Source: an uncultured bacterium (GTDB taxonomy: Bacteria; Patescibacteriota; Doudnabacteria; UBA920). From it: 64,000 nt of DNA. The DNA lies in the NCBI GenBank assembly GCA_963749445.1, contig CAVVMJ010000010.1, positions 181,738 through 245,737 on the forward strand, given 5' to 3'. Made by a program: the position numbers and the translations under genes. Positions 6,729 through 62,172 of the stretch are shown here, piece after piece (the stretch's first letter is position 1; the number at the start of each line of letters is the position of its first letter). The notes under the pieces are model-generated. The model searched no databases. It had not been told where the DNA came from and was given only the letters and a program-made list of their open reading frames with translations.

Positions 6729-6730
6729 AA

Positions 6731-7173: not shown

Positions 7174-7248
7174 ATTATTTACAGATTTATGGGCGCACTG
7201 TAGGGGAAGATATTATCTTCCCTTTAAACGGGCGGATGATATCCGCCC

Positions 7249-7972: not shown

Positions 7973-7976
7973 TTGC

Positions 7977-9483: not shown

Positions 9484-9615
9484 ACAAACAGCACCATTTC
9501 TTAAACTCACGGCCGTGAGTTTAAGAAACCTGCGATCAAATGGAATGATGGCAAAATCCGCCAGGCTCATATCTCCCATATACTGGAGCATAAAAAATAC
9601 TAACTCTCTCGAACT

Positions 9616-9672
9616 GGATCCCGGATATTTTTTGCGGCTTATGATGTTCATCAGCGCAAAAAATCCGGGATG
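9616..9672. repeat. R3 hairpin repeat (GGATCCCGGATATTTTTTGCGGC...GCGCAAAAAATCCGGGATG)
   Basis: one of four copies (also 13307..13372, 58813..58870, 62041..62172); causes the spurious look-alike ORFs 9481..9720 and 58670..58903. Confidence 0.8.
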
Positions 9673-9823
9673 GACACATGTGTAGTTAGCCCGATTTTCT
9701 GGGCTGCCCAAATATCTCACAGCCGATAAATCGGCTAACTACGGGCTTAAATAGCCAAAAGGACTACCCTTTCAAGGATAGTCCTTTGTCTGTGTTAATC
9801 CGTTATCAATCCGTGTTTATCTT

Positions 9824-12314: not shown

Positions 12315-12374
12315 GCGGAGCATCCTCCCCTGCCAAGGGGAGGTGTCCCGCGAAGCGGGACGGAGGGGTTGGAG
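12315..12374. repeat. R1 terminal inverted repeat (B orientation) abutting stop codon of DUF559 gene
   Basis: GCGGAGCATCCTCCCCTGCCAAGGGGAGGTGTCCCGCGAAGCGGGACGGAGGGGTTGGAG ends at 12374; gene stop begins at 12375. Confidence 0.85.
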
Positions 12375-12725
12375 TCAACCAAGATTTTTCTTAATCTCCT
12401 GTAACACTCCTTCTAAATTTTTTATGACATCCTTATTTTCAAATCTTATAACTTTTATATTCAGCCTTTGTAAATATTCGGTTCTATTTTCATCTTTGGC
12501 GTAACCTTGTTCGGAATCATGAGGACTGCCGTCAAGTTCAACGGCAAGCTTCTTATCGGCGCAATAAAAATCTACAATATACCTGCCAATACCGTGTTGC
12601 CGGCGAAATTTATGGCCCAATTGCTTATTTTTTAAATGATTCCAGAGCCTGGCTTCGGCTGGCGTTAAATGCTTTCTTAAGTCTTTTCTGTAATTTTTCA
12701 GACCGATGATGTTGTTTAACCTCAT
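12375..12725 (-). CDS. DUF559 domain protein (Vsr-like / PD-(D/E)xK endonuclease fold)
   Basis: 116 aa; LTPAEARLWNHLKNKQLGHKFRRQHGIGRYIVDFYC...ELDGSPHD motif set; about 65% identical to 29279..29635; framed exactly by R1 inverted repeats. Confidence 0.7.
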   Translation of the reverse strand: MRLNNIIGLKNYRKDLRKHLTPAEARLWNHLKNKQLGHKFRRQHGIGRYIVDFYCADKKLAVELDGSPHDSEQGYAKDENRTEYLQRLNIKVIRFENKDVIKNLEGVLQEIKKNLG

Positions 12726-12789
12726 ACTCCAACCCCCCTCCCGCCGCTTTGCGGCAGACTCCCCCTTAACAGGGGGAGATGCTCCGCGG
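12726..12789. repeat. R1 terminal inverted repeat (A orientation) abutting start codon of DUF559 gene
   Basis: CTCCAACCCCCCTCCCGCCGCTTTGCGGCAGACTCCCCCTTAACAGGGGGAGATGCTCCGCGG begins one base after the ATG (12725); its GGAG sits in Shine-Dalgarno position. Confidence 0.85.
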
Positions 12790-13229: not shown

Positions 13230-13306
13230 CCCAGCCGAGCATCATCGCAACACATGGGCGAGAGCCGGGATCCAGTTACCGGCTCAAATACTGTATACCG
13301 ATTCTG

Positions 13307-13372
13307 GGCCCCGGATATTTTTTGCGGCCTGCGATAACCATCAGCGCAAAAAATTCCGGGGTGGAAACTATT
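13307..13372. repeat. R3 hairpin repeat copy
   Basis: GGGCCCCGGATATTTTTTGCGGCCTGCGATAACCATCAGCGCAAAAAATTCCGGGGTGG. Confidence 0.75.
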
Positions 13373-16438: not shown

Positions 16439-17053
16439 CTATCTCCGCCCAAACCTCGCAAAATGCGCAAACGCCTTATTGGCCTCTGCCATCCTGTGCA
16501 CGTCTTCTCTCTTCTTTATGGCTGCACCGGTGCGGTTGTAGGCGTCCATAATTTCTCCGGCCAATTTTTCCTTCATGGGCGCGCCTTTTTTGGCCCTGGC
16601 CGCGGCCAACAGCCAGCGGATGCCGAGCGTGGTCTTGCGCGGCTCCTGAACTTCCATCGGCACCTGATAGTTAGCCCCGCCGATTCTGCGGGATTTTAAC
16701 TCCATCATCGGGGCGACGTTTTTTAACGCGATATCAAATACCGCTCGGCCGTCCAACTTTTGCGGTGCCGCTGATTTTTGCGGAACTGCAGTATTCCCCT
16801 CCTTTTTAAGGAGGGGCGTCTGCGCAGCAGACGGGGTGGTTGGAGATTTGACTGAAACAGCAACCGGAGCCGCCACGGGCATCGCGGCCATTTTTTTCTC
16901 CACAATCTCCAAAGCGTCGTAAAAAATCCTGCGCGCCACGTTTTTCTTGCCGCGCTGCATCAAATAATTTATAAATTTGGCATACTTGACCGAGCCGAAT
17001 TTCGGGTCCGGCAAAGGCACGTGTTTGTCGTAGCTCCTTGATTTTCTGGGCAT
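16439..17053 (-). CDS. rpsG: 30S ribosomal protein S7 with about 46 aa in-frame insertion partly encoded by an R1 half-repeat
   Basis: 204 aa versus about 156 typical; N-terminal (PRKSRSYDKHVPLPDPKFGS) and C-terminal (KKREDVHRMAEANKAFAHF) S7 blocks flank AMPVAAPVAVSVKSPTTPSAAQTPLLKKEGNTAVPQKSAAPQKLDG. Confidence 0.9.
   Translation of the reverse strand: MPRKSRSYDKHVPLPDPKFGSVKYAKFINYLMQRGKKNVARRIFYDALEIVEKKMAAMPVAAPVAVSVKSPTTPSAAQTPLLKKEGNTAVPQKSAAPQKLDGRAVFDIALKNVAPMMELKSRRIGGANYQVPMEVQEPRKTTLGIRWLLAAARAKKGAPMKEKLAGEIMDAYNRTGAAIKKREDVHRMAEANKAFAHFARFGRR
16801..16864. repeat. R1 half-repeat (B) inside rpsG coding sequence, in frame
   Basis: GGAACTGCAGTATTCCCCTCCTTTTTAAGGAGGGGCGTCTGCGCAGCAGACGGGGTGGTTGGAG. 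Confidence 0.85.
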
Positions 17054-17055
17054 GG

Positions 17056-17130
17056 TTTTAGCTTTTAGCGATTAGCTTTTAGCGATTAGCCAGCCATGTC
17101 TGGCTAAATGCTAACTGCTAAATGCTAACT
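17056..17130. repeat. H1 spacer hairpin (TTAGCG/GCTAAA tandem-repeat arms)
   Basis: TTTTAGCTTTTAGCGATTAGCTTTTAGCGATTAGCCAGCCATGTCTGGCTAAATGCTAACTGCTAAATGCTAA; copies also at 57..130, 1587..1670, 7903..7972, 17553..17632. Confidence 0.8.
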
Positions 17131-17136
17131 TCTTGT

Positions 17137-17550
17137 TTACTTCTTCTTGGCTCCATACTTAGACCGAGAGCGTTTCCGACCGTCAACGCCTAATGTGTCC
17201 AATTTCCCTCTGATGATATGATAGCGCACGCCGGGCAAATCTTTTACCCTGCCGCCGCGGATCATCACCACACTGTGTTCCTGTAAGTTGTGGCCGATGC
17301 CCGGAATATAGGCAATCACTTCCATGCCGTTGGTGAGTTTGACTTTGGCGACTTTGCGCAAAGCCGAGTTCGGCTTTTTGGGCGTGGTGGTATAAACCTT
17401 AAGGCACACGCCACGCATAAACGGCGCGCCTTTGGCAATCCACAAGGTGCGGTTTTTGATTAAGTTGACGCGGCGCAACAAAGCCGGAGCCTTGCTTTTG
17501 GCCTGTAAACTGTGCCTGCCGTGCCTGACTAACTGGTTGATTGTGGGCAT
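17137..17550 (-). CDS. rpsL: 30S ribosomal protein S12
   Basis: 137 aa; [12 protein letters not shown]...[14 protein letters not shown]...[11 protein letters not shown] canonical S12. Confidence 0.9.
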
Positions 17551-17552
17551 TT

Positions 17553-17632
17553 CGTTAGCTTTTAGCGTTTAGCGATTAGCGATTAGCCAGCCATGTTTGG
17601 CTAAAAGCTAACTGCTAAATGCTAAATGCTTT
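17553..17632. repeat. H1 spacer hairpin upstream of rpsL
   Basis: TTCGTTAGCTTTTAGCGTTTAGCGATTAGCGATTAGCCAGCCATGTTTGGCTAAAAGCTAACTGCTAAATGCTAAATGC. Confidence 0.8.
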
Positions 17633-17862
17633 AACGGATTAAACTTGAATAAGCAATAAAAAAGCCGACAAAAGATGTCAGATCTTCTGCTTTCGCCTGC
17701 TTGGTACTCATCAGAAACCTATTGATGTCGGCCGGTGGCCTGCTTCCCAAAACCTGCGACTAAAAAATAGTGATTCGCCGCTCGCGCGGCGGGTTTCTTA
17801 TTCAATTAAAAGAATTATATACCAAGCTTGCAAAAAAGTCAACATTTAGATAATGTTATTTT

Positions 17863-18213: not shown

Positions 18214-18353
18214 AGCAAATCCACGGAGTTTCTCCCCTCTTGACCCATTCGGCAAAGCTCAGGGTCACCCCGAGCTTATCGAGGTGGTGAGGGGAGATGC
18301 CGAAGTAGCAACGAGGCAGAGAGGTTGCATTCAAACCCGACACTCCTTTTTTA

Positions 18354-18737
18354 TCATCTCTGGCACCCCTCAATATTCTTATCCACGTCGTTATTCCAAA
18401 ACTGTAAAACTTTATACCCCTGTTCTTTGGCATAATCCCGTTTGGTCAAATCATAGTCAGAAACCTTTTGCTCGCTATGCTGTCCTCCGTCAAGTTCAAT
18501 CAGTAACATTTTTTCACGGCAGCTGAAATCAAAAATATATGAACCAACCTGCACCTGACGCTTAAATTTTAAATGATAAAACCGCCCGGCGCGCAGGCGG
18601 CTCCATAGCTTGGTTTCCCAAGGTGTTTGGTTTTTGCGGAGATTTTTTGAGTTTGTTAAAAAAGGTTCAGGGATTATGCGATTTTCCATATATTCTGCAA
18701 CCTCTCTGTCTAAAATTTTGGCCGATGATGAACCCAA
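18354..18737 (-). CDS. DUF559 domain protein (third, more divergent copy)
   Basis: 127 aa; HLKFKRQVQVGSYIFDFSC...ELDGGQH pattern parallels the other two; flanked only by R1 fragments (18751..18782 and 18252..18300). Confidence 0.65.
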   Translation of the reverse strand: MGSSSAKILDREVAEYMENRIIPEPFLTNSKNLRKNQTPWETKLWSRLRAGRFYHLKFKRQVQVGSYIFDFSCREKMLLIELDGGQHSEQKVSDYDLTKRDYAKEQGYKVLQFWNNDVDKNIEGCQR

Positions 18738-18822
18738 ACAAAATTTTAGACATCTCTCCTCAAAAGGAGAGAAGCTCCGCGGAAAACCCTTTCGTCATCC
18801 CAATCGGCGACCAATCACTGAT

Positions 18823-21345: not shown

Positions 21346-22410
21346 TCAATGCCAAACAACATCCTTCCCAACCGGCACAAGCTCCGCCCAAATCGGCCCG
21401 CGGTTAAAGTTGATTTCTTTACCGTCTTGATCATAATAGCGGGTACGGCCAGAAACCTTTTCCCACGTGCCGATGATAATCTTGCCGTCCTCAAACACAT
21501 CCGCCCTGCCTCCGACTTCTAAATCCAGGCCGATGGACAGCGGCGTGTCGCTTTTGACGGGATAAGTTTTCACGAACTGGACAACAATATTTTTGGCGCT
21601 AATTTGTTTGCCGGTGTCCAAATCTTTGTGCGGCTTGCCGGCCAAAAATCTTGAATAGGAATTATCCAAAATATTATATTTCCACTCCACGACGTAGTCG
21701 TGGGTGGAAAAACTGATGTTTATGTCCGCGGCCGTGGAACTGGCAAAAATTTTCCCTCCCTCCCCCTCCGGGGGAGGGATTGAGGAAGAGGGGCTGTCGT
21801 CTTTAAATCGCCACGGCTGATAAATCGTCGCGTCAGAGAAGAACTGACGGGCACCAATCAGCTTGTCCAATTTATCAATCGACGTGTAAACGTTATGCGG
21901 CATAGTGCGCCAAGTAACACGCTGGAAATACGGGTCGTTAAAAAATTGGTCAGCGTCGCTGATGTTTGGGTAATCGCCCGCTTTGATATTTGCCAAAGCA
22001 TCTGAGTTGCCGCCCACGTGCGCAAAAACCGCACCCCATTCGTCCGCAATTTCGGCAAAATACGTCCTCGCGCTTCGCACCGGCCCGATGTTTTTGGCCG
22101 CTTTACTTTGGTATAGCGCCAAAAACCGCGTAATGCCACCCTCGGTCGGGGCTTCGTAAACCACATCGGCGTCCAAAAGGCCCGACTGCGGCCTGGCGTA
22201 GGGGTAGTTTTCCACCATCACGCCAATGGGGCGCCGCCCTGCAATTTGTCCCTCAACTTTTTGCCCGTCCATAGCCAAAAACTCCTCGGGCCGCGCCGAA
22301 ATCTTTACAACCTGATTTTGCCGATCAATGCCAGCTTTATGCCCCCGATCCCAGAACCAAAAAATGATTGCGCAAAACAAAATTAGCGCAACCAAAATGC
22401 GTTTTTCCAT
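21346..22410 (-). CDS. DUF3048 domain protein (YerB-like), membrane anchored
   Basis: IGVMVENYPYARPQSGL...VVYEAPTEGGITRFLALY matches DUF3048; start taken at MEKRILVALILF; contains a small in-frame palindrome CCTCCCTCCCCCTCCGGGGGAGGGATTGAGG. Confidence 0.7.
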   Translation of the reverse strand: MEKRILVALILFCAIIFWFWDRGHKAGIDRQNQVVKISARPEEFLAMDGQKVEGQIAGRRPIGVMVENYPYARPQSGLLDADVVYEAPTEGGITRFLALYQSKAAKNIGPVRSARTYFAEIADEWGAVFAHVGGNSDALANIKAGDYPNISDADQFFNDPYFQRVTWRTMPHNVYTSIDKLDKLIGARQFFSDATIYQPWRFKDDSPSSSIPPPEGEGGKIFASSTAADINISFSTHDYVVEWKYNILDNSYSRFLAGKPHKDLDTGKQISAKNIVVQFVKTYPVKSDTPLSIGLDLEVGGRADVFEDGKIIIGTWEKVSGRTRYYDQDGKEINFNRGPIWAELVPVGKDVVWH

Positions 22411-23256: not shown

Positions 23257-25065
23257 TTAATGGCCGAAAAATCCTCTGGCTAAACTGTCCGGCAATAAAC
23301 AAAGGCTGATGTTTTTATCTTTGCAAAACTTTTTAATTTCAGGGTCGCGCACACTGCCGCTTGTGGCTATTATAGCACAAATCCCGGCTTTTGCCAAAAC
23401 TTCCACCCCGTCCACGAACGGGAAAAAACTGTCGCTGTAGGCCACCGCGCCTTTGGTTTGATGTCCCGCGTCCAGGGCCCGTTTGATGGCCAACTGGCAG
23501 CAGCCGACTCTGTCCTGCTGCCCCACACCGTTGCCGATTAACATCCCGTCTTTGACCAAAGTGACAGTGTTGCTGTTGCTGGTGGAACCGATTGCCCAGG
23601 CCAAAAGCATATCGGATTTTTGCTGATCGGATAATTTGCCGATAAACTCCGGCCGAGGGTTCCCCTCGGTTTCCGAACGGCTCCGGTCCGAGGGGAACCC
23701 TCGGGTCAAATCCAAAACAAAATCATAATTCGGCTGGGCCAAAAACCCGCCGCGCACATAACGGAACCGACGATGGCTATCCGGCGAGTTTTTTGACAGA
23801 TTCCCCAGCGCGGGGTTTACCAAAAACCGGCACTTGTCGCCTTTGCGTTTTAACATTCTGACCGCTCCTTCGGTAAAGGATGGAGCAATAATCCCATCAA
23901 GCAACCTCCGCGGCTTGCCCGCCGAAGCTTCAGCGAAGGTGGGAGCTTTCCCCTCCTTTTCAAGGAGGGGTCCGGCCGAAGGCCGGGGGGTGGTTGGAGC
24001 CATCCGATGTGTAAGCAATATTTCCGCCAATTTTTCGTCAACCAAAAAATTTACCATCACCAGCCCGCCAAAAATCGCGCGCAAATCCCCTTCCAGCATT
24101 TTTTGGATGGCCGATGACGGCGTATCGGAAACCGCCGCACCGCACGGGTTGCCGTGCTTTACCCCCAAAGCTATATTCATTATTCCCTTCCCCCTCTGGG
24201 GGAAGGTGGCCGTGAGGCGGCCGGATGAGGGTTTTATTACGGATTGCAACAAAGTGGGATTGCAGTCAAACCCTGCCGCAATGTGCGTTATGGTCTGCAG
24301 CAATCTGTCCACGTCCGCCCAGTTGTTGTAACTTACCGGCATGCCGGCCAATAATCGGAATTTCGATAGCGATAATTCATCACTATCTGAAATCGCATAC
24401 AATCCCGCCGGCGTCTGGCATGCATTCTCGCCATATTTACAAATTGCGGCGCGGTGACCAACCATTCCTTCGTATTCGCCCGCTCCGTGATAGCGCGCGG
24501 ACGACAAACAGTACTCCGCCACAATAAATTCCGCTTTAGCTGCAAGCTGGTCCAAAAATTTTTCTTTATCAGGCTTGCCGTTTTTTAACCAGCTGATGAC
24601 TGCCACCCTGTCGTCCGGATCACAAACGACGATTCTTCTTCCCTTGGCCGCGCTCCGGAGCATTGTCGGCCCGCCAATGTCAGTCTTTTCGATAACAGCT
24701 TCCCTGGCCTTTGCCGATCCGACTTCCGATTTTCCGATTTTTCCGATTTCTTCCGACAACGGATACAAATCCACGCACACCAAATCTATCCACGGGATTT
24801 TTAATCGATTTAATTCCTGCCGATCTTCATCGGTATCCCGCGCCAAAAGCCCGGCGTGGACTTCGCGCGACAACGTGACTACGCGATGACCCAAAATCGC
24901 CTTACCGCCGGCCAAAGAAGCCACATCAGTCACTTTAATTCCTGCGTCTGACAAAGCTTTGGCTGTCCCTCCGCTCGCCAAAATTTTAAATCCCAAATCC
25001 GCCAACTCTTTGGCAAATTCCACAATCCCGTCTTTATTATAAACCGAAATCAGTGCGGTTTTCAT
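23257..25065 (-). CDS. purH: bifunctional AICAR transformylase / IMP cyclohydrolase, with several in-frame repeat-encoded insertions
   Basis: 602 aa; N-terminal MGS-like domain (MKTALISVYNKDGIVEFAKELADLGFKILASGGTAKAL) and AICARFT domain; about 80 aa longer than typical because of insertions at 23653..23706, 23941..24000, 24170..24235, 24711..24760. Confidence 0.9.
   Translation of the reverse strand: MKTALISVYNKDGIVEFAKELADLGFKILASGGTAKALSDAGIKVTDVASLAGGKAILGHRVVTLSREVHAGLLARDTDEDRQELNRLKIPWIDLVCVDLYPLSEEIGKIGKSEVGSAKAREAVIEKTDIGGPTMLRSAAKGRRIVVCDPDDRVAVISWLKNGKPDKEKFLDQLAAKAEFIVAEYCLSSARYHGAGEYEGMVGHRAAICKYGENACQTPAGLYAISDSDELSLSKFRLLAGMPVSYNNWADVDRLLQTITHIAAGFDCNPTLLQSVIKPSSGRLTATFPQRGKGIMNIALGVKHGNPCGAAVSDTPSSAIQKMLEGDLRAIFGGLVMVNFLVDEKLAEILLTHRMAPTTPRPSAGPLLEKEGKAPTFAEASAGKPRRLLDGIIAPSFTEGAVRMLKRKGDKCRFLVNPALGNLSKNSPDSHRRFRYVRGGFLAQPNYDFVLDLTRGFPSDRSRSETEGNPRPEFIGKLSDQQKSDMLLAWAIGSTSNSNTVTLVKDGMLIGNGVGQQDRVGCCQLAIKRALDAGHQTKGAVAYSDSFFPFVDGVEVLAKAGICAIIATSGSVRDPEIKKFCKDKNISLCLLPDSLARGFFGH
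23941..24000. repeat. R1 half-repeat (B) in frame inside purH
   Basis: GGGAGCTTTCCCCTCCTTTTCAAGGAGGGGTCCGGCCGAAGGCCGGGGGGTGGTTGGAG encodes APTTPRPSAGPLLEKEGKAP. Confidence 0.8.
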
Positions 25066-29218: not shown

Positions 29219-29278
29219 GCGGAGCTTCCCCTCCTGCCAAGGAGGGGTGTCGCGCGAAGCGTGACGGGGTGGTTGGAG
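29219..29278. repeat. R1 terminal inverted repeat (B) abutting stop of DUF559 gene
   Basis: GCGGAGCTTCCCCTCCTGCCAAGGAGGGGTGTCGCGCGAAGCGTGACGGGGTGGTTGGAG. Confidence 0.85.
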
Positions 29279-29635
29279 TTATTGCAAATGTTTCCCGATT
29301 TCAGCCAACACCCCTTCTAAATTTTTAATTACATCGCCGTTTTGAAAACGGATAACCTTTATGCCTTTGCTCTCCAAATATCTTGCGCGTTCCTGGTCTT
29401 TTGTGTAGCCCTGTTCCGTATCGTGAGGCGAACCATCAAGTTCTATGGCTAATTGCCTGCTTGGGCAATAAAAGTCCAGGATATAATAACCAATGCCGTG
29501 CTGCCGCCTGAATTTTACTCCCAATTGGTTATTCTTGAGATGCACCCAAAGTCTGGCTTCTGCCGGGGTTAAATGCTTGCGTAGTTCTTTCCGGTTATTT
29601 TTTGAGCCTATTAGATTATTCAACCTATCAGTCAT
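29279..29635 (-). CDS. DUF559 domain protein (Vsr-like endonuclease fold), second intact copy
   Basis: 118 aa; LTPAEARLWVHLKNNQLGVKFRRQHGIGYYILDFYC...ELDGSPHD; framed exactly by R1 inverted repeats as at 12375..12725. Confidence 0.7.
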   Translation of the reverse strand: MTDRLNNLIGSKNNRKELRKHLTPAEARLWVHLKNNQLGVKFRRQHGIGYYILDFYCPSRQLAIELDGSPHDTEQGYTKDQERARYLESKGIKVIRFQNGDVIKNLEGVLAEIGKHLQ

Positions 29636-29698
29636 GCTCCAACCCCCTCCCCCGCCTTCGGCGGGTACTCCCCCTTGACAGGGGGAGAGGCTCCGCGG
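29636..29698. repeat. R1 terminal inverted repeat (A) abutting start of DUF559 gene
   Basis: GCTCCAACCCCCTCCCCCGCCTTCGGCGGGTACTCCCCCTTGACAGGGGGAGAGGCTCCGCGG. Confidence 0.85.
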
Positions 29699-30711: not shown

Positions 30712-30840
30712 GCGGAGCTCCCCTCCTAATATAGGAGGGGTGTCCTGCGAAGCGGGACGGGGTGGTATTATCTGTGCCGGTATTTTACCACCTCCCCGCC
30801 CTGCGGGCGGTACTCCTCCTTTTCAGGAGGAGAGTACTGC
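30712..30840. repeat. R1 repeat B-spacer-A pair (gene-less)
   Basis: GCGGAGCTCCCCTCCTAATATAGGAGGGGTGTCCTGCGAAGCGGGACGGGGTGGTATTATCTGTGCCGGTATTTTACCACCTCCCCGCCCTGCGGGCGGTACTCCTCCTTTTCAGGAGGAGAGTACTGCAG. Confidence 0.85.
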
Positions 30841-30886: not shown

Positions 30887-30970
30887 TGGTGGCCGAGGAG
30901 GGAGTCGAACCCTCATGCCGTTAAGCGCGCGCTCTTGAGGCGCGTGTGTCTGCCATTTCACCACTCGGCC
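30887..30970 (-). tRNA. tRNA-Leu (anticodon CAA), class II with long variable arm
   Basis: Hand-folded: GGCCGAG acceptor, D-arm GTG-AAATGGCAGA-CAC, anticodon arm CGCGC-CTCAAGA-GCGCG, 11-nt variable arm, T-arm GAGGG-TTCGACT-CCCTC, CCA encoded. Confidence 0.85.
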
Positions 30971-36532: not shown

Positions 36533-39500
36533 TTAAACCACAAAATTTATTAAGCGGTCAGGCACAAAAATCACCCGCCTGATATTTTGGGTTCCGACGA
36601 TTGCCACAGCCTGCTGTTTAACTTGATTCTCATCGCTTCCCGGCGACACCGTAATGCGGCCTTTGACTTTGCCGTTGACCTGCACCACGATTTCAATTGT
36701 GGCGTCAACGATTTTTGCCGGGTCAAACGCCGGCCAGCTTTCCAGCTGGAGCGATTTTTTGCCTCCGATGATTGAATTTAGTTCTTCTGCCAGATGCGGC
36801 GCGAACGGATGTAACAATTTTAGAAAAATTTTAAAATCTTCCTTCGAAATATTTTGGCCAAAAGCTTGAATATTTTTTAAATTTAAATATTTTTCAAACT
36901 TTGGATCTTTTGATTTAATCATTTCTTCTCGGGTAATATAAATTTCGTTCATAAACACCATAAGACCGGATACGCAGGTGTTAAATCGAAAATTTTCTAT
37001 ATCCTCTTCGACTTTTTTTATAGTTTTATTCAAAGCTTTCTCAACTTGTCCGTCAGTAAAATTCATTACATCGTTATCTTCCATCGCCTTTAGACTTAAA
37101 CCGACCTGATATACCTTATCCAAAAATCTTTTGACCCCGACTACGCTTTTGTCGTTCCAGGCGATGGTGTCCTCGTGCGGACCCAAAAACAACTCAAACA
37201 TGCGCAACGTGTCCGCGCCGTGCGAGGCTACAATATCCTGCGGATTGACCACGTTGCCGCGGCTTTTGGACATTTTTTCGCCGTCCGCAGCCAAAATTAT
37301 GCCGTGAGGCACGCGTTTAACATACGGCTCCCTTGATGTAACCAATCCTTGATCAAACAAAAATAAATTCCAAAACCGGCTGTAAAGCAAATGCAAAGTC
37401 GTGTGCTCCATGCCGCCAAAATAAACGTCCACCGGCGTCCAGTATTTTTGTTTGCTGATGGACGCGAATTCTTTTTTGTCTTTTGGATCGATATACCTTA
37501 ACCAATACCAACTGCTACCTGCCCATTGCGGCATAGTGTTGGTTTCTCTTTTTGCCGGCGATTTGCAATTCGGACATTTTACATTAACCCAGTTTGATAT
37601 TGCGGCCAATGGCGATTCTCCTGTTCCTGTCGGCTGGTAATTTTTGACCGGCGGGAGTTTTACCGGCAAATCCTTTTCGGCTACCTCCACAATACCGCAT
37701 TTTGGGCAATGAATAATCGGAATCGGCTCGCCCCAGTAGCGCTGGCGGGAAAATACCCAATCACGGAGTTTATACTGGACAGTCGCTCTGCCGAATTTTG
37801 CTGCCATTTTGGGAATTGCATCTTCTGACTTCATTCCGGTAAATTCACCGGAATTAATCAAAGCACCATAATCCGCAACGGCTCCGACCACCTCCCCGCC
37901 TGACGGCGGTACTCCCCCTTGAAAAGGAGGAGAGCTCCGCGTGACATCCGAGAATAACTGCAGAGCTTCCCCTCGCTTCTTTAAGGAGGGGTGGACGCGA
38001 AGCGAACGGGGTGGTTGGAGACACAACTTGCTTAATTGGTAAACCGTATTTCTTCGCAAACTCAAAATCCCGCTCATCATGCGCCGGCACGGCCATAATC
38101 GCGCCGGTGCCATAACCCCAAAGCACGTAATCCGCCGCCCAAATCGGGATTTCTTCTTTTGTTGCAGGATTAATCGCCTTAATACCTTTTAACTCCACTC
38201 CGGTTTTTTCCTTACCTTCTGATGAACGATCCATTTCCGATTTTTTCTTTGCCTTTTCTACATATTCCTCAACTTCTTTGTAATTTGATCCGCCTTGGCG
38301 GATGAAATTTTCTGTCAACGGATGTTCCGGTGCCACCACCATATATGTCGCGCCGAAGATAGTGTCCGGCCGCGTGGTAAAAACTTTGATTAACGGCAAG
38401 ACGGCGGCCAAAACTTCCGGTTCTTGCTCGGCGCGAAAATGAACCAGTTGCCCTGCTTTTCTAGTGATAGGCGCGTTCAAAACTTCCGACAGTTGGGCAG
38501 CTTGATCGTCGGAAATTGCATCGTCGTTGGGATCATGTAAAATTGTAATTGAACCGGCTTTATTTTTAATCGCCGAAAAATCAAAACTCCATTTAAAATT
38601 TTTTTGAAAAGGCCTGGGTGGTCTTTAAAATTTGGGCTGACAAAACCGCCGACCAATACCAGTCCAGCGATTTTTGCCTGTAATTTTTCCAGAACTTTCA
38701 TCGCCACCACCGTTCCCAAACTATGGCCGACTAAAATTGTATTTTCGCCAAAACGGCAATTTTTCAAAACAAAATTAACCTGCGCTTCTTCACTGGGATT
38801 AGTCGGATTCGGCAAGGCCGGTATATCCACTTTCATACCTTTAAATTCCAATTGGCTTTTTAGCCAAGGATAGAATCTGGTTTCCGGCGTTTCATTCCAA
38901 CCGTGCAAAATTACGTAATTATGTTTTGCGTTTAGGGTAAAATTAATTTCCGCGCCCACAGACTTGCCAATCCAGTTTTCCTGTTGGAGCTTAACCGCTT
39001 CCGGCCACTCGGGCAGATGTTTTAATCCTTCCAAAAGTTTTTCCGCATACGCAGTAATTCTTAAATACCACTGGCGCAATTCTTTTTTTTCAACGACTGT
39101 GCCGCAGCGCTCGCATTTGCCGTCTATGACTTCTTCGTTAGCCAAACCGGTTTTGTCTTTCGGACACCAATTAATCAAACCTGTTGCCTCGTAGGCCAAT
39201 CCTTTTTTAAAGAATTGCAAAAACAGCCATTGTGTCCATTTATAATAATTCGGGTCTGTGGTATTTATTTCCCGCGACCAATCAAAACTTAAACCCCACG
39301 ACTGCATTTGTTTTTTGGCATTTTTGATATTTTTCGCCGTGGTTACCGCGGGCTGGACGCCTTTTTTATGGCATAATTTTCCGCCGGCAAACCAAACGCG
39401 TCCCAGCCGATGGGAAACATAACCTCATAGCCCCGCATACGATGATAACGAGCATAAACATCCGCGGCCACGTACGGCCGCAAATGCCCCATATGCAAAC

Positions 39501-39691: not shown

Positions 39692-40666
39692 TCAGATGTT
39701 AAATAGTTTTTTTGCATTTTTGGTCGTCGATTCCGTAACTTCTTTAATTGACAAACCTTTTATCTCCGCAACCTTATCGGCCACAAACCTTACATAGCTC
39801 GGCTCGTTTCTTTTGCCTCGATGAGGCGCCGGCGATAAATACGGGCAATCGGTTTCCAGTAAAATTTTATCAAGCGGCGCGAGTTTTACCAACTTTTCCA
39901 TATTGCCGGTTTTGTCAAATGTGATTATTCCGTTAAAGCTGACATACGCGCCGCGGTCGAGGAATTTTTGGAGATATTCTGGACTTCCCGTGTAACTGTG
40001 CACCTCAAACCTCAAACCGGCTCCAACCCCCTCCCCGCCCTTCGGGCGGTACTCCCCCTTGTCAGGGGGAGAGGCTCCGCCTATATCCTCGGTCAACTGC
40101 GGAACTTCCCCTCCTGCCAAGGAGGGGTGTCCCGCGGAGCGGGACGGGGTGGTTGGAGTTTTTTCCTCATCAAGTATCTCCAGTAAATCATCATAAAGCG
40201 ACTCATCACCTTTTGCCGGGCGACTGTGGACTACTAAAACTTTATTTAATTCTTTTGCTAATTTCACTTGCTCCCGAAATGCAGCTTTTTGTTTATCTTT
40301 GACTTGCTGATGGTCGCCATCCGCAGGAAACCGATAATAATCCAGCCCGCACTCCCCTATCCCGACAACTTTCGGGTTTGTCGCTATACTTTGGTATAGC
40401 GCTTCGTCAAAATGCTCTTCGCGGGTAAGAAAATGCGTTTCTTCTTCATCAACGTATTGGGAATGGGTATGCTCGGGATGCAAACCGACAACCGCGTAAA
40501 TCCCCTCTTTAAATTGATTAGCCAATTCCACGGCCTCTCGTGACGTGTCTATTTGCGACCCGACGTTTATGACCCAAGTATCATTATCAAGCGCCCGCTG
40601 CAAAGCTTCTTTGGCATCGCCCTTAAACGCGCGAAAATTCACGTGAGCGTGGGTGTCAATCAACAT
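39692..40666 (-). CDS. tatD: TatD family hydrolase with about 50 aa in-frame insertion encoded by an R1 pair
   Basis: MLIDTHAHVNF, GIGECGLDYYR, VVHSR, ETDCPYL motifs; 324 aa versus about 260 typical. Confidence 0.85.
   Translation of the reverse strand: MLIDTHAHVNFRAFKGDAKEALQRALDNDTWVINVGSQIDTSREAVELANQFKEGIYAVVGLHPEHTHSQYVDEEETHFLTREEHFDEALYQSIATNPKVVGIGECGLDYYRFPADGDHQQVKDKQKAAFREQVKLAKELNKVLVVHSRPAKGDESLYDDLLEILDEEKTPTTPSRSAGHPSLAGGEVPQLTEDIGGASPPDKGEYRPKGGEGVGAGLRFEVHSYTGSPEYLQKFLDRGAYVSFNGIITFDKTGNMEKLVKLAPLDKILLETDCPYLSPAPHRGKRNEPSYVRFVADKVAEIKGLSIKEVTESTTKNAKKLFNI
40021..40158. repeat. R1 repeat A-spacer-B pair, in frame inside tatD
   Basis: CTCCAACCCCCTCCCCGCCCTTCGGGCGGTACTCCCCCTTGTCAGGGGGAGAGGCTCCGC ctatatcctcggtcaactgc GGAACTTCCCCTCCTGCCAAGGAGGGGTGTCCCGCGGAGCGGGACGGGGTGGTTGGAG; encodes KTPTTPSRSAGHPSLAGGEVPQLTEDIGGASPPDKGEYRPKGGEGVGAG. 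Confidence 0.9.
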
Positions 40667-40690: not shown

Positions 40691-42304
40691 TTATGAATCG
40701 ATGCGGGGAAATAACCGTGGGATATTTTCCAATTTCGGATCTTTCAAAACCTTATCCGCCTTCGCTAAAGCTTCGGCGGATGGCCCGCTATTTATTAAAT
40801 TAAGGTGGGCCAAAATCTTTTCGCTGGTTTGAGGAAGGAAGGGAATTAAATCGGTTGCGATTTTGTGCAGCTCCGACAGCAGATATTGTATATCTTTCAC
40901 TGCTTTTTCTTTGTCAGTTTTTATAACTTTAAAGGGCTCGCTTTTCTGGATAAATTCGTCACAGGCTTTTATTTTTTGCCAAATTTGGTCCAAGGCTTTT
41001 TGGAACTGATAGCTATCCATAAATAATTTTAACCCCTCTGCCTCGGATGCACTCGGCATCTCCCCATGAATTGGGGAGAATAATATTGAGTTGGCTCTAG
41101 CCATCTTTAAAATCCTGCTGGTCAAATTCCCCAAGCCGTTGGCCAAGCCGGCGTTATAGCTTTCCACGAACTTTTCCCAGGTATAGTCGCCGTCTTCAAA
41201 GGTGGAAATTTCGCGGAGCAAAAAATAACGCAAGGCGTCTATAGCCTGCTCGTTGGTAAGGCCTTTGGATTTTAATTTGTCGATAATTTGATATGGGTCG
41301 GCCACATTGCCCAAAGATTTGGACATTTTTTGCCCGCCGCTGTTAATGAAGCCGTGGATAATGATTTGCTTGGAATTCGGCAGGCCGGCGGACATTAGCA
41401 TCGCCTGCCACATTGCCGATTGCTGCCTGAGATTGTCCTTACCCGCGATTTGGATGGCATTCGGATGCTCGTGAGTTCCCCAGAAATCGGGGAATCGGAG
41501 GTCGGATGAATCGGAGGTCGGAGCAGTATCCGATTTTCCGATTTTCCGATTTTCCGATCTATCCGATTCAGGCCAGCCCAAAGTTGAAACGTAATTTATC
41601 AGCGCGTCAAACCAGACGTACATTACGTGATCTTCGTCCTCCGGCACGGGCACGCCCCAAGGCATTTTTGATTTTAATCGCGATATGGAAAAATCGTGCA
41701 GGCCGGATTTTACAAACTGCTTAATTTCATTAAAGCGGAAATCCGGCACCACAAACTCGGGATTTTTTTCGTAAAACTCCAAAAGCGGCTGTTGGTAGCG
41801 GGAAAACCGGAAAAAATAATTTTCTTCGTCAATCAGTTCAATTCGCAAATGCGGGTGGATTAGGCACTGGCCGTCTCCGTTCAAATCGCTTTCCGTTTTT
41901 TCCAGCTCGCAGCCCACGCAGTATTTAACTTTATAAATTTTCTTATAAATATCACTCTTGTTAAAACATCTTTTCCAAAACTCCCGGCTGGCGGCAATGT
42001 GGTGCTTGTCCGTAGTGCGGATAAAATGGATGCCCGATGAAATGCCCAAAGCCGGCATCAACTGCCTAAACTTATCCGCGTACTCATCAACATAACTCTG
42101 GATATCCTTGCCGGTACTTCGCGCCTTGGCATAAACTTTTTGCCCGTGTTCGTCCGTGCCGGTATTAAAAAACACGTCCTGCTTTAACACCTCCTTGTGG
42201 TAACGGGCAATGGCATCGGCCTGGACCATTTCCAAAGCAAACCCAAGGTGCGGGTCAGCATTCACATAAGGCAGGGTGGTGGTGATGTAAAATTTATCGG
42301 GCAT
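40691..42304 (-). CDS. metG: methionyl-tRNA synthetase with two in-frame repeat-encoded insertions
   Basis: 537 aa; PYVNADPHLGFA (HIGH-type), KMSKSLGN; insertions at 41031..41101 (R2 hairpin) and 41487..41570 (TTTTCCGAT micro-repeats). Confidence 0.9.
   Translation of the reverse strand: MPDKFYITTTLPYVNADPHLGFALEMVQADAIARYHKEVLKQDVFFNTGTDEHGQKVYAKARSTGKDIQSYVDEYADKFRQLMPALGISSGIHFIRTTDKHHIAASREFWKRCFNKSDIYKKIYKVKYCVGCELEKTESDLNGDGQCLIHPHLRIELIDEENYFFRFSRYQQPLLEFYEKNPEFVVPDFRFNEIKQFVKSGLHDFSISRLKSKMPWGVPVPEDEDHVMYVWFDALINYVSTLGWPESDRSENRKIGKSDTAPTSDSSDLRFPDFWGTHEHPNAIQIAGKDNLRQQSAMWQAMLMSAGLPNSKQIIIHGFINSGGQKMSKSLGNVADPYQIIDKLKSKGLTNEQAIDALRYFLLREISTFEDGDYTWEKFVESYNAGLANGLGNLTSRILKMARANSILFSPIHGEMPSASEAEGLKLFMDSYQFQKALDQIWQKIKACDEFIQKSEPFKVIKTDKEKAVKDIQYLLSELHKIATDLIPFLPQTSEKILAHLNLINSGPSAEALAKADKVLKDPKLENIPRLFPRIDS
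41031..41101. repeat. R2 hairpin repeat in frame inside metG
   Basis: CCCCTCTGCCTCGGATGCACTCGGCATCTCCCCATGAATTGGGGAGAATAATATTGAGTTGGCTCTAGCC; near-identical 3' part to intergenic copy 2293..2345. Confidence 0.8.
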
Positions 42305-44241: not shown

Positions 44242-45174
44242 TCAATTTTTATTTCTTAATTTTTTTAATATCTCAATATCTGCCTTTACCTTATCATGTT
44301 CTGTTTCAAATATCAATGGCATGTCAAGGCCAACAGCGCCGAAGGCATCATTATTTCTCTCCCCCTTCGGGGGAGATGTCGCGTTTGACGCGACGGAGAG
44401 GGTGCCAAAATAACGGATAAGCGCCCCAAAACCCTTTTCCCCGATTTTACCGTCGCCAATGTGCTCGTGACGGTCTTTTTTGCCGCCAAGGTCTATTTTG
44501 GAGTCGTTAATGTGGCTCATTTTTAGCCATTTGAGGCCAATGATTTTATCAAATTTTTTAAAAACCGATGACACCGCCGCGTCGTCGCGCAAATCATAAC
44601 CGCTGGCAAAAGCGTGCTGGGTATCAAAACAAATGCCGCCAAAAGTTTTAAATTTCACCAACGGTTTCATAAGTTCAGCCAACTGTTCAAACGTGCCGCC
44701 TAAAGTTTCCCCGGCTCCAGCCGCTATCTCGAGCAGAAACTGCGTGTCGCCCTGATATTTTTTTAGAACTTCTGATAAGCCTTCTTTAGCCTGCTTTAAA
44801 GCCTTCTCTTTTCCCAGATCCTTACCGCTGCCCAAATGCGTCATCACATATTTTGCGCCAAGTAAATTTGCGCGCTTTAATTCTTCCCCAACAACGGAAA
44901 TTGAGCCGTGATAAATTCTTGGCGCCTTTGAACCAAAATTGATGAAATAAGGGCAATGGACCACAAAAATATCTAGCTGATATTTTTGCATCTCATCTTT
45001 AAATCTTTCAATCATTAAATCATTCAATTCCGGAGCTTTCCCTCCCATCGGCGGCCGCGTGAAAATCTGGAAAGTTTCGCAGCCCAAAAGAGCCGCGTTT
45101 TTTGGCGCGTTAAAAACCCCTCCCGCGACGGAAACATGGCAGCCGATTAACAGTTTATTTATCATCGACCTCAT
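44242..45174 (-). CDS. nfo: endonuclease IV (AP endonuclease, TIM barrel) with a short in-frame palindrome-encoded insertion
   Basis: GCHVSVAGG, HxxYLINL-type and HDxxGxG metal-binding blocks; palindrome TCTCTCCCCCTTCGGGGGAGATGTCGCGTTTGACGCGACGGAGAGGG at 44353..44410 in frame. Confidence 0.8.
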   Translation of the reverse strand: MRSMINKLLIGCHVSVAGGVFNAPKNAALLGCETFQIFTRPPMGGKAPELNDLMIERFKDEMQKYQLDIFVVHCPYFINFGSKAPRIYHGSISVVGEELKRANLLGAKYVMTHLGSGKDLGKEKALKQAKEGLSEVLKKYQGDTQFLLEIAAGAGETLGGTFEQLAELMKPLVKFKTFGGICFDTQHAFASGYDLRDDAAVSSVFKKFDKIIGLKWLKMSHINDSKIDLGGKKDRHEHIGDGKIGEKGFGALIRYFGTLSVASNATSPPKGERNNDAFGAVGLDMPLIFETEHDKVKADIEILKKLRNKN

Positions 45175-50401: not shown

Positions 50402-51793
50402 TTAATAATGCTCTTTATAATATTTTAGCATATCTTCAAAATAATCGTAAGTGATGGCGGTGCGGATTTTTTTCATTAGGTTTAGATAAAAACGCAGGTT
50501 GTGCATTGTGGCCAGGCGGGTGCCGAGCTGTTCACCGGTGGCAAATAAATGCCGCAGATAAGATTTGGTGTGGTTTAAACACAAGTAGCAATCGCAAGTG
50601 TTGTCTATGGGGGTAAAATCTTCTTTGTATTTTTCCAGGCGGATGTCGATGGTTTGGTAGCCTTCTACAACTCCAACCCCCTCCCCCCGCTTCGCGGGAT
50701 ACTCCCCCTTGTCACCCCTCGACTCCGCTCGGGGTGACCCTGAGCGGTAGCCGAATGAGTCAGGGGGAGAGGCTCCGCGTTTGTTCGAGGATATACGCGG
50801 AGCTTCCCCTCCGAGCTTGGGAGGGGTGGCCGCGCCAGCGGCCTGTTCGACTTCGCTCAAGGCCGCCCTGAGCCCAGCCGAATGGGCGGACGGGGTGGTT
50901 GGAGTCGGAATATTTTTTGCCGCGATATAAAGCCTTCCATGCCTCGCCTCCCTTGTCGGAATAACGCAATCAAAAGTATCGCAGCCGCGCGCCGTACCCT
51001 GGACAATATCGTAAGGCGTGCCTACGCCCAAAAGATGTTTGGGTTTTTGTTCCGGCAAATGCGCTATTGACCACTCCACGGCTTTCATCATTTCTTCAAA
51101 CGGCTCGTCAACCGTGGCTACGCCGCCGATGGCAAATCCTTCAAAACCAAAATTCGCCATCGCTTGGGCGGAAATTTTACGCAAGTCCTCAAAATTCGAA
51201 CCCTGAACTATACCCCAAAGTTTTTGTCCGGAGTTGATGGGGTCGCCGTGCTTCATAATATTTAAATGTTCGCGGATGGCGCGCTCGGCCCAGCGGTTGG
51301 TCAGCTCCGTGGAGATTTTACTTTTTTCATACTCAAACGGCACGCCGGAAAAATCATCCAAAATTAAAGCGATGTCGCTGCCCAGGTTGGCCTGGATTTG
51401 AATGGATTTTTCCGGCGATAAAATTTCCTGTTTGCCGTCCAAATCAAAATTAAACAGCACCCCGGCTTCCATTACCTTTTTAAATTTTGCCAGTGATTGC
51501 ACCTGAAATCCCCCGCTGTCAGTAAATATCGGCCCTTTCCAGTTCATAAATTGGTGCAAGCCGCCGGCTTTATAAATCAGTGCGTCGCCCGGACGTTGCC
51601 ACAAGTGGTAAGTATTAGCGAGTATCATTTCCGCGCCCCAAAATTTTAACTCCTCGCTCGTAACCGACTTAACCGTCCCCCTCGTCCCAATAGGCAAAAA
51701 CGCCGGCGTATGCACATCCCCGTGCGCGGTATGTATTATGCCGTTTCTTGCGGCTGATGAGGAATCTTTTTTTTGGATGTCGAAATAAGGCAT
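50402..51793 (-). CDS. tgt: queuine tRNA-ribosyltransferase with 78 aa in-frame insertion encoded by an extended R1 element
   Basis: 463 aa versus about 375 typical; FLPIGTRGTVK, DSGGFQ, DCVIPTR, CDCYLC zinc site all present; insertion NIPTPTTPSAHSAGLRAALSEVEQAAGAATPPKLGGEAPRISSNKRGASPPDSFGYRSGSPRAESRGDKGEYPAKRGEGVGVVEG. Confidence 0.9.
   Translation of the reverse strand: MPYFDIQKKDSSSAARNGIIHTAHGDVHTPAFLPIGTRGTVKSVTSEELKFWGAEMILANTYHLWQRPGDALIYKAGGLHQFMNWKGPIFTDSGGFQVQSLAKFKKVMEAGVLFNFDLDGKQEILSPEKSIQIQANLGSDIALILDDFSGVPFEYEKSKISTELTNRWAERAIREHLNIMKHGDPINSGQKLWGIVQGSNFEDLRKISAQAMANFGFEGFAIGGVATVDEPFEEMMKAVEWSIAHLPEQKPKHLLGVGTPYDIVQGTARGCDTFDCVIPTREARHGRLYIAAKNIPTPTTPSAHSAGLRAALSEVEQAAGAATPPKLGGEAPRISSNKRGASPPDSFGYRSGSPRAESRGDKGEYPAKRGEGVGVVEGYQTIDIRLEKYKEDFTPIDNTCDCYLCLNHTKSYLRHLFATGEQLGTRLATMHNLRFYLNLMKKIRTAITYDYFEDMLKYYKEHY
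50671..50904. repeat. R1 repeat, extended A-X-B form, in frame inside tgt
   Basis: CTCCAACCCCCTCCCCCCGCTTCGCGGGATACTCCCCCTTGTCACCCCTCGACTCCGCTCGGGGTGACCCTGAGCGG...GAGGCTCCGCG...GCGGAGCTTCCCCTCCGAGCTTGGGAGGGGTGGCCGCGCCAGCGGCC...GGACGGGGTGGTTGGAG. Confidence 0.9.
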
Positions 51794-51805: not shown

Positions 51806-51956
51806 GCGGAGCCTCCCCTCCTATTCCAAGAATTTCATTAGAACATAGGAGGGGTGGATCGCGAAGCGAGACGGGGTGGTATATAAATTGCCGATAACTA
51901 CCACCTCCCCCGCCTGCGGCGGGTACTCCTCCTATTCTAGGAGGAGAAGCTCCGCG
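51806..51956. repeat. R1 repeat B-spacer-A pair immediately upstream of tgt
   Basis: GCGGAGCCTCCCCTCCTATTCCAAGAATTTCATTAGAACATAGGAGGGGTGGATCGCGAAGCGAGACGGGGTGGTATATAAATTGCCGATAACTACCACCTCCCCCGCCTGCGGCGGGTACTCCTCCTATTCTAGGAGGAGAAGCTCCGCG. Confidence 0.85.
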
Positions 51957-58749: not shown

Positions 58750-58812
58750 TGTCCATCCCGGCCGAGCCCAAGCATACAGGGCGAGAGACGGGACCCGAAA
58801 AAAAGCTTATAC

Positions 58813-58870
58813 CTGGATCCCGGATATTTTTACGGCTGATAATATTCAGGAACGTAAAAATTCCGGGATG
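58813..58870. repeat. R3 hairpin repeat copy downstream of recombinase gene
   Basis: GGATCCCGGATATTTTTACGGCTGATAATATTCAGGAACGTAAAAATTCCGGGATG. Confidence 0.75.
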
Positions 58871-58994
58871 ACAACTGAATATACGTCTGTATAAAACTAC
58901 CACTTTAAAAGCCCGTCTGGTTTTCCAAACGGGCTTTTAAGTTTGTTGACTCTTACTCATCTGTTTCTTATTACTGATTAATTATTGCCGATTA

Positions 58995-62040: not shown

Positions 62041-62172
62041 CGGAATTTTTCAAGCTTGAGGATGTTTTCAGTCTTGAAAAATATCCGGGATCCAGATTTT
62101 TGCTTCTACTGGATCCCGGATATTTTTTACGGCTGCTGATATCCCAACGCGTAAAAAATTCCGGGATGACAA
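62041..62172. repeat. R3 hairpin repeat, tandem pair
   Basis: CCGGAATTTTTCAAGCTTGAGGATGTTTTCAGTCTTGAAAAATATCCGGGATCCAGATTTTTGC...GGATCCCGGATATTTTTTACGGCTGCTGATATCCCAACGCGTAAAAAATTCCGGGATG. Confidence 0.75.

Follow-up and report, generated by a model that had tools for sequence, protein, structure and literature searches.

In a 64-kb stretch of DNA from an uncultured Doudnabacteria bacterium (contig CAVVMJ010000010.1; the whole stretch is called the window below), a GC-rich hairpin sequence termed R2 lies in the spacer between the ribosomal protein genes rplP and rpmC and, in frame, inside metG, the gene encoding methionyl-tRNA synthetase (MetRS). We propose, with a probability of roughly 70%, that R2 represents one subfamily of a single selfish DNA repeat, interspersed and hairpin-structured, which occurs in Doudnabacteria and in related bacteria of the Candidate Phyla Radiation (CPR). 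In its complete form, the repeat would consist of two inverted arms placed tail to tail around the gene of a DUF559 endonuclease (Vsr-like, PD-(D/E)xK) of 111-118 amino acids (aa), with an arm tail supplying the ribosome-binding site of that gene. In a nuclease-free form, of which the copy in the rplP-rpmC spacer would be an example, the two arms would enclose a short AT-rich centre instead, while the copies in metG and nfo would represent a single-arm form. Copies in coding sequences would survive only where the frame is kept, no stop codon arises and a tolerant surface loop is hit, and would then be translated as an extra peptide. The stems are likely kept paired in the long term by a DNA-level process, either hairpin-templated correction or gene conversion between copies within the genome. 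We established the repeat family and its architecture, the covariation of its stems, its spread over genomes, its presence or absence at orthologous sites, the translation-compatible frames of its coding copies and a tight link to DUF559 that is subfamily-specific.

The window is gene-dense, with nearly all genes on the minus strand, has a G+C content of 42-52% and is rich in repeat families. It was examined together with about 0.5 Mb of related loci from other assemblies (numbered with the prefix L). The 32-mer CATCTCCCCATKAAWTGGGGAGAATAATATTG occurs at exactly two sites in the window, 2306-2337 in the spacer and 41057-41088 in metG, and no third site was found there even at three mismatches. 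The two copies differ at two loop bases only, and the number of matches expected by chance was 0 (100 shuffles, up to three mismatches). In a pairwise alignment the likeness extends over about 78 nt (2266-2345 versus 41027-41105). The presence of one hairpin in both spacer and metG, as claimed in the original prediction from the sequence of the window, was thus confirmed.

The host gene, an open reading frame (ORF) at 40691-42304 on the minus strand, was assigned by Pfam to a MetRS of 537 aa, whose closest homologues are from Candidatus Doudnabacteria and other Patescibacteria. Residues 402-424 of this protein, RANSILFSPIHGEMPSASEAEGLK, are encoded by the repeat; they come after the catalytic-domain match, which ends at residue 398, and before the anticodon-domain match, which starts at residue 426. 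Elsewhere in the window, rpsC, rplV, rplB and leuS (2880-3740, 3700-4500, 5850-7250, 36533-39307) are broken by paired or repeated frameshifts, through which the right protein can be read by frame-hopping. These look like indel errors of an error-prone assembly and not like biology, and statements on a frame in a single genome therefore need cross-checks. For metG the frame was checked in six independent assemblies, and the repeat indeed keeps it without a stop codon.

Read on the strand bearing TTCTCCCCA, an arm measures about 57-75 nt and is composed, in this order, of a mini-hairpin with a GNA loop, the hairpin HP1, the dinucleotide TG, the hairpin HP2 and a tail. The mini-hairpin is GCGAAGC in R2, GCGGAGC in the R1 arms and GCCGAAGGC in nfo, and is followed by AATATTATTC. 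HP1 has an 8-bp stem with a pyrimidine 5′ side and a purine 3′ side and a loop of 4-7 nt, whereas HP2 has a GC stem of 5-8 bp and a loop that is mostly GAA or GCA. The tail reads CAGAGRGGTT (in short, GAGRGGTT). The 5′ side of HP1 resembles an anti-Shine-Dalgarno sequence (CCTCC, CCCCTCC) and its 3′ side a Shine-Dalgarno sequence (GGAGG, AGGAGGGG).

The spacer measures 171 nt (2176-2346). It is bounded by the start codon of rpmC (2173-2175) and by the stop codon of rplP, a TAG (2347-2349) that adjoins the mini-hairpin of the left arm. This left arm (2274-2346, minus strand; 60.4 bits in the covariance model described below) comprises the mini-hairpin GCGAAGC (2339-2345), HP1 with the stem TCTCCCCA/TGGGGAGA (2308-2328), HP2 with the stem GTCCCGAC/GTCGGGAC (2287-2306) and the tail CAGAGAGGTTAAAA. 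The right arm is inverted (2187-2268, plus strand; 28 bits) and carries HP1′ with the stem CCCCTCTCC/GGAGAGGG (2191-2214) and a degenerate HP2′. The two arms face each other with their tails, which pair to form a third hairpin (about 2257-2286), and they enclose a short AT-rich centre; nuclease-free centres read GGTTAAAA...TTAACC. As RNA, the element would fold into five successive hairpins (-78.8 kcal/mol, z -6.5). The 160-bp composite that had been described in this spacer is a small full element of two inverted arms without an ORF (2187-2346), whereas metG and nfo each contain one arm only.

The metG arm (41027-41105, minus strand; 53.9 bits, E ~1e-14) shows on the sense strand a degenerate mini-hairpin with AATATTATTC (41080-41101), a perfect HP1 (TCTCCCCA-ATTCA-TGGGGAGA, 41059-41079), TG, the HP2 variant GCCGAGTGCATCCGAGGC (41040-57) and the tail CAGAGGGGTTAAAA (41027-41040); its fold has a z of -2.0. 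The arm in nfo (44338-44407, plus strand; 36 bits) is antisense to the gene and consists of the mini-hairpin GCCGAAGGC (44338-44346), HP1 with TCTCCCCC/GGGGGAGA, HP2 with GTCGCGT/ACGCGAC and the tail GGAGAGGGTG. As predicted, the nfo palindrome is in frame (44352-44407 within ORF 44242-45174, minus strand).

A covariance model was trained on four R2 left arms, all of them from other genomes. It scored the spacer arm at 60 bits, the metG arm at 54, the nfo arm at 36 and every R1 arm at 18-46, and found about 19 arms at E<0.01 in the window, the E-values of this model being rough. Since a model trained outside the window matches the nfo copy and every R1 arm, one design with variations underlies R1, R2 and the nfo copy. 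The 'several related families' of the original prediction are hence related, but they are subfamilies of one superfamily and not separate. Its inference that hairpin modules colonise both spacers and coding sequences is supported by the intergenic and in-frame copies of related arms.

In an alignment of 50 arms (window and 18 loci), 98.5% of the stem cells pair, 97.5% as Watson-Crick pairs and 1% as G-T, and 13 of the 15 stem pairs show two-sided (compensatory) changes, in 124 cells; these figures lean toward structure, because the alignment was fitted to the model and the matches were picked by a model that rewards pairing. None of 500 shuffles came near these values, nor did a slid control. 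A MAFFT alignment was left out of the pair counts because HP2 was misaligned in it. HP2 varies freely and is nevertheless paired, though the database pattern put no constraint on it. HP1 exchanges only C-G with T-A, so that its pyrimidine/purine polarity is kept in every copy. GNA triloops are a mark of very stable DNA mini-hairpins, for instance d(GCGAAGC). The few G-T pairs, the kept polarity of HP1 and the GNA triloops point to a constraint that acts on DNA and not on one transcript.

Three DUF559 genes of the window lie between arms. Two of them, 74% identical to each other, belong to subfamily 1: the gene at 12375-12725 (minus strand) between an arm at 12318-12374 (plus strand) and an inverted arm at 12727-12784 (minus strand), and the gene at 29279-29635 (minus strand; 118 aa) between an arm at 29222-29278 (plus strand) and an inverted arm at 29637-29693 (minus strand). 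Here the tails GGTTGGAG/CTCCAACC of the R1-type arms touch the stop and start codons. The third gene (18354-18689, minus strand; 111 aa) is only about 40% identical to both, represents subfamily 2 and lies between R2-type arms. Its upstream arm (18699-18772, minus strand; 22.9 bits) reads GCGGAGC-TTC-TCTCCT..AGGAGA-GATG, followed by a long HP2 and the tail CAGAGAGGTTGCAG, 7 nt past which the nuclease ATG is found. The downstream R2-type arm (18259-18330, plus strand; 13.6 bits) reads ..GAGGGGAGATG-CCGAAGTAGCAACGAGG-CAGAGAGGTTGCA and has an expanded HP1 loop. Arm type thus tracks nuclease subfamily, subfamily 1 being accompanied by the GGTTGGAG tail and subfamily 2 by the CAGAGAGGTT tail.

We extended the sample to 12 DUF559 genes, namely the three of the window, five found by a profile search of fetched DNA and four chosen as diverse homologues (52-73% identity). 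All of them adjoin arms, 11 on both sides; the exception, in L061, has an arm pair upstream only, and the next arm is located about 150 nt downstream. Each DUF559 ATG is preceded, at a distance of 6-13 nt, by an arm tail, and the gene's stop codon extends into the other arm. It had been suggested to check whether R2 is associated with a specific gene as R1 is with DUF559, and the outcome was positive: DUF559 is tied to R2-type arms at 18354-18689 and in L005, L092, L093, L094, L096, L097, L098 and L101. In L005, which is also an exact-pattern R2 locus, the centre of the element is occupied by the nuclease gene, whose stop TAA overlaps the left-arm GGTTAA. Orthologous junctions differ in their content. 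The GlyRS/M24 junction is empty in L011, where stop and ATG overlap, while L094 and L096 hold arms and DUF559 exactly between stop and ATG. Likewise, arms and DUF559 are present at the dnaX junction of L005 and L101, whereas that of L001 has one arm.

The DUF559 proteins match Pfam DUF559 (PF04480, E 1e-32 to 1e-34) and MTES_1575 only, and the catalytic motif D..ELDG..H..K is kept in five of five aligned copies. They resemble the structural-genomics entry 3HRL of the PDB (E 2.5e-18) and, weakly, a PADLOC homing-endonuclease model (E 9e-5) and the mobile-intron homing endonuclease I-Bth0305I (3R3P, E 0.076); a match to NCBIfam PRK09767 was below the cut-off. Most homologues are on contigs of 0.5-3 kb. 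DUF559 was the only gene found between element ends, and no parent insertion sequence with a transposase was found. To our knowledge, DUF559 is a widespread domain without a known role. We give somewhat less than even odds to DUF559 being the enzyme that spreads or maintains the element.

The same observations could be read differently. The arms might be parts of a free-standing homing-endonuclease cassette, serving as translation-control hairpins and homology flanks without being mobile themselves, in which case nuclease-free pairs and single arms such as those in metG and nfo would be scars of DUF559 invasion and subsequent deletion, the host gene having been re-sealed in frame. The position of the arms relative to the start and stop codons of DUF559 agrees with this, as does the dnaX junction with its lone arm in L001, and hairpins upstream of free-standing Vsr-like homing endonuclease genes ('fractured genes' loci) are known to persist past gene loss (PMC2677866). 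We nevertheless consider this explanation unlikely. There are about six arms per DUF559 gene in the window, the invasion of single-domain essential genes such as rpsG and metG would split them, and the arm pairs within genes are oriented head-to-head and not tail-to-tail as a deleted cassette would leave them.

A scan with the pattern ATTCTCCCCANNNNNTGGGGAGATG covered one genome per species. It gave eight loci in five other CPR metagenome-assembled genomes, all intergenic. Together with the same metG site in six other lineages, these loci show that R2 is not unique to the two places in the window. Including the window, four of the nine intergenic exact-pattern copies are at ribosomal-operon junctions (L16/L29, L22/S3, L24/L5 and L6/L18), each with its left arm beside the upstream stop codon; in three of the four this stop is a TAG that adjoins the mini-hairpin. 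L002 has at least 10 arms within one 8-kb operon locus. A viral contig collection gave no match to the pattern, and a phage origin therefore has no support.

Such a distribution, the very stable fold of the spacer element and the strong covariation would also suit a host-functional structured element of polycistronic mRNAs, acting as a stabiliser, a processing site or a means of translational coupling in ribosomal-protein operons, with the coding copies being incidental. Several results make this improbable. Both orientations relative to transcription occur, since the elements of L001 and L005 are reversed and the nfo, rpsG and purH arms are antisense to their genes. Copies are present inside coding sequences and around a nuclease gene, the RNA would contain G-U pairs at only 1%, GNA triloops are typical of stable DNA mini-hairpins, and orthologous sites vary between filled and empty. 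Moreover, the transcribed strand shows no T-run after the hairpins, and the elements lie inside operons and ORFs. Rfam gave no family match, the window yielding only four tRNAs and the spacer a best E-value of 0.11, far below the gathering score. An intrinsic terminator or a known RNA family was rejected on these grounds. Integron attC sites were also rejected: the tails GGTTGGAG/CTCCAACC resemble GTTRRRY/RYYYAAC imperfectly (6/7), the copies are scattered in housekeeping genes, and there are no cassette arrays and no integrase nearby.

For metG, syntenic loci from independent assemblies were compared. The same codon position carries the module in seven lineages (window, L092, L009, L010, L094, L093 and L016), at MetRS identities down to about 63%, and is empty in L011, L012 and L013, which have the native 33-aa linker. 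The HP1 stem is TCTCCCCA/TGGGGAGA in the window and L092, CCTCCCCA/TGGGGAGG in L009, CTCTCTCCA/TGGAGAGAG in L093 and TCTTCTCCT/AGGAGAAGA in L016. Its pairing is held through compensatory changes while the peptide varies (SPIHGE, LPWRGE, SPGVER, SSPGEEKR). The frame is intact in all seven copies; L010 carries one surplus G in HP1 and is back in frame after 10 nt (+1 then +2). As judged from these sequences, the kept frame and the compensating indels of L010 indicate that the segment is translated and under frame selection. For the same reason, an intron, an intein and translational bypass were rejected. Module-like peptides are found at this site in at least 13 of 120 homologues. In a neighbour-joining tree of 85 sequences, R2-bearing MetRS are scattered among empty ones, an ordering that fits one old gain with many losses as well as repeated gains. 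It is hardly credible that we see in metG a native MetRS linker, specific to the lineage, whose likeness to the spacer arose by chance or by a one-off copy from metG into the spacer: the linker that joins the catalytic to the anticodon-binding domain varies in all CPR MetRS and the net length gain is only about 7 aa, but the same order of parts recurs at many unrelated loci of several genomes, including those around DUF559 genes, the chance expectation is 0, and the conservation of the DNA hairpins while the peptide changes already contradicts this idea.

An AlphaFold2 model (26-sequence alignment; mean predicted local distance difference test, pLDDT, of 79) shows residues 405-418 as a loop that connects two helices, 376-404 and 419-430. 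The pLDDT is below 50 at residues 413-416 and averages 50 over the block 411-420. According to this model, the inserted peptide would be located in a region compatible with the host fold. The metG peptide probably has no function of its own. The remaining low-pLDDT stretches, 249-269 and 511-527, correspond to two further repeat-derived inserts. The first (41528-41568, residues ~247-260; very low pLDDT) is built of four units of the 8-nt periodic TTTTCCGA, read in frame as SDRSENRKIGKSD; other Doudnabacteria have different repeat-like or hairpin-like inserts at the same MetRS site, for example SNQLISKSANQ and PLPLGEGRGEG. The second (~40757-40813, residues ~498-516) is a 19-aa insert, HLNLINSGPSAEALAKADK, found in this genome only, with the hairpin ATCCGCC-GAAGCTTTAGCGAA-GGCGGAT. 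A similar motif, CCGCCAAAGCTTTAGCGG, is contained in the metG module of L093. In the window copy, the 11 nt upstream of HP1 are those of the spacer copy, whereas HP2 is that of the orthologue in L009; this is suggestive, but only suggestive, of a partial conversion by a paralogous copy.

Comparable patterns were observed in other coding copies. The C-terminal nfo site is filled in the window, L009, L092 and L093, with differing HP1 and HP2 variants, and empty in L011; the L011 nfo instead carries a large insert at a site close to the N-terminus that bears no insert in the window. Stems are shared within genomes: TCTCCCC occurs in metG, spacer and nfo of the window, and CCTCCCC in metG and nfo of L009, both with a CCGAGTGCAYCCGAGG-type HP2. 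Although drawn from few sites, this suggests exchange among paralogous copies within a genome. R1-type arms are present in frame inside rpsG (16792-16845, plus strand), with an S7 of 204 aa compared to a 148-position profile, and inside purH (23944-23999, plus strand). An R1-type head-to-head pair inside tatD (39692-40666, minus strand) is located at 40021-40158 and encodes TPTTPSRSAGHPSLAGGEV...GEGVGAG in frame; a further in-frame pair lies inside tgt (50664-50867), the product being 463 aa compared to a 357-position profile. The peptide TTPSRSAGHPSL recurs in tatD and in the nfo of L011, and SPTTPS..PLLKKEG in rpsG and purH. In the tatD of L011 (11535-12620), a duplicated native stretch, LQFEVHSFT...LRFEIHSFT, flanks extra sequence, which may be the trace of an insertion or repair event. 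The palindromes that had been listed in purH (23653-23706 and 24170-24236) and in the DUF3048 gene (21757-21800) were confirmed, and all keep the frame. Only the one at 24181-24236 (plus strand; 5′ flank CATTATTC, HP1 CCTTCCCCC/GGGGGAAGG, in frame; 14.5 bits, E 0.12) is tied, weakly, to the family as an R2-like arm; for those at 23653-23706 in purH and 21757-21779 in the DUF3048 gene no tie to the arms was established.

Several points weigh against a selfish repeat. Between filled and empty sites (nfo, GlyRS/M24) we found no conserved target sequence and no clear target-site duplication, although a duplication may have been lost from old insertions. Neither transposition nor homing was directly seen, and the likeness to I-Bth0305I is marginal; we know of no transposase or homing activity of DUF559. 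The head-to-head pairs in tatD and tgt are opposite in geometry to the tail-to-tail pairs that hold DUF559, the mobile unit being a single arm or a pair. The copies at ribosomal-operon junctions, which share one orientation, could mean a host function, and part of the covariation may reflect the way in which arms were collected and aligned. Finally, the metG module adds little in net length to the 33-37-aa linker common to CPR MetRS. It therefore took the place of native linker sequence, and a simple insertion does not explain this site. Taking these points into account, we still favour the selfish repeat, which may be mobile at present.

In their behaviour, the arms can be likened to the Rickettsia palindromic elements (RPEs; PMC10969869), of which they would be an analogue and not a member. 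Both are short interspersed palindromes found in intergenic regions and in frame inside unrelated housekeeping genes (here metG, nfo, tatD, rpsG, purH and tgt). Both are translated as an extra peptide in tolerant protein regions, each orientation and frame giving a recurrent peptide. They differ in the host phylum (CPR/Patescibacteria here, Alphaproteobacteria for RPEs) and in the unit, which here is GC-rich and shorter (arms of 57-75 nt and pairs of 130-170 nt, compared to about 100-150 bp). In addition, some copies here contain a candidate enzyme gene, DUF559, whereas we know of no enzyme gene tied to RPEs.

A second comparison is with repetitive extragenic palindromic (REP) sequences, their bacterial interspersed mosaic elements (BIMEs) and the REP-associated tyrosine transposases (RAYTs), together called REPtrons. 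Here too, short imperfect palindromes occur singly and as inverted pairs, inverted copies flank a small nuclease-type gene, repeat and enzyme subtypes are cognate, and the repeats far outnumber the gene. In contrast, the gene is of the DUF559/Vsr-like PD-(D/E)xK type and not an HUH Y1 (IS200/IS605-like) transposase, each arm has three hairpins instead of one, and the arm alignment lacks the GTAG/GTGG head of REPs, which are palindromes of 20-40 nt. The arms are also often intragenic, whereas REPs are extragenic by definition. By its enzyme, its repeat head and its intragenic habit, the repeat is not a member of the REP/RAYT system.

Vsr-like homing genes of the I-Bth0305I family share with the complete form a small Vsr-fold nuclease gene placed exactly between host genes and co-oriented with them, a hairpin just upstream of the start codon, variable presence at orthologous junctions (here GlyRS/M24 and dnaX), and a hairpin that can outlast the gene (PMC2677866). 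Such homing genes come chiefly from phages, introns and inteins, and no genome-wide multi-copy repeat surrounds them; the likeness of DUF559 to them is weak, and no cleavage site is known. Bacterial MITEs (miniature transposable elements with inverted repeats), such as Correia, ERIC and QMITE, have inverted ends, stably folded transcripts, REP-like truncated copies and occasional in-frame fusions (PMC10969869). The spacer element at 2187-2346 is likewise a small non-coding derivative with inverted ends. It differs from MITEs in that no parent insertion sequence with a DDE transposase and no target-site duplication was seen, and in being GC-rich where MITEs are AT-rich.

Tentatively, and at well under even odds, we suggest that a DUF559/Vsr-like endonuclease and its cognate three-hairpin arms might form a previously unrecognised selfish class. 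It would parallel REP-RAYT on the basis of a PD-(D/E)xK enzyme, would be rife in CPR bacteria and lie in frame in essential genes, and its hairpins would be kept by nuclease-driven gene conversion. A literature search of incomplete coverage, and hence weak evidence of novelty, found no account of such elements in CPR bacteria or of DUF559 with repeats. If the selfish repeat is real, protein-invading palindromic DNA would no longer be a peculiarity of Rickettsia and would also occur in reduced CPR genomes, lengthening MetRS, S7, TGT, TatD, PurH and Nfo. DUF559 would gain a testable role as the nuclease partner of a hairpin repeat. Furthermore, the repeat would explain odd low-complexity inserts in CPR proteins, fragmented Doudnabacteria assemblies and ORFs that gene callers over-extend through arms, and stems conserved in a translated loop would offer a natural system in which DNA-level and protein-level constraints coexist.

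Further arms were found outside the loci discussed so far. An intergenic tail-to-tail pair without a gene between the arms is located at 30719-30838, about 50 nt from a tRNA gene (30890-30970, minus strand), and similar pairs are found at 51814-51952. A head-to-head pair (5740-5874) lies at the 5′ end of a 337-aa ORF (4840-5853, minus strand), which has weak Gmad2 and PsbP_2 matches and is placed between rpsS and rplB in the ribosomal operon. In L001 (2774-2950), the HP2 loop of an R2 arm contains about 90 nt of AT-rich extra sequence enclosed by the stem GTCCAGCC...GGCTGGAC. L002 has three identical arms at three junctions, with an HP2 related to that of this L001 arm.

The window also carries other repeats. 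At ribosomal-gene junctions, 7-nt periodic units, TTAGCGn...GCTAAAn, build up a different hairpin family of long inverted repeats (42-151, 1593-1688, 7904-7988, 17044-17148 and 17541-17645). A third family of repeats, CCCGGATATTTTTTGCGGC...GCGCAAAAAATCCGGG, has four copies of about 64 nt (9613-9676, 13303-13366, 58811-58874 and 62108-62171). In L092, a small ORF with a GIY-YIG domain, which is of homing-endonuclease type, was found between tatD and leuS (8158-8445). LeuRS with an embedded alpha/beta-hydrolase domain (Ser_hydrolase/Abhydrolase) is encoded in the window (38477-39307), L009 (12963-17048), L092 (8480-11557) and L094 (9107-12157); the L009 protein additionally contains a NUDIX domain and reaches 1361 aa in total.

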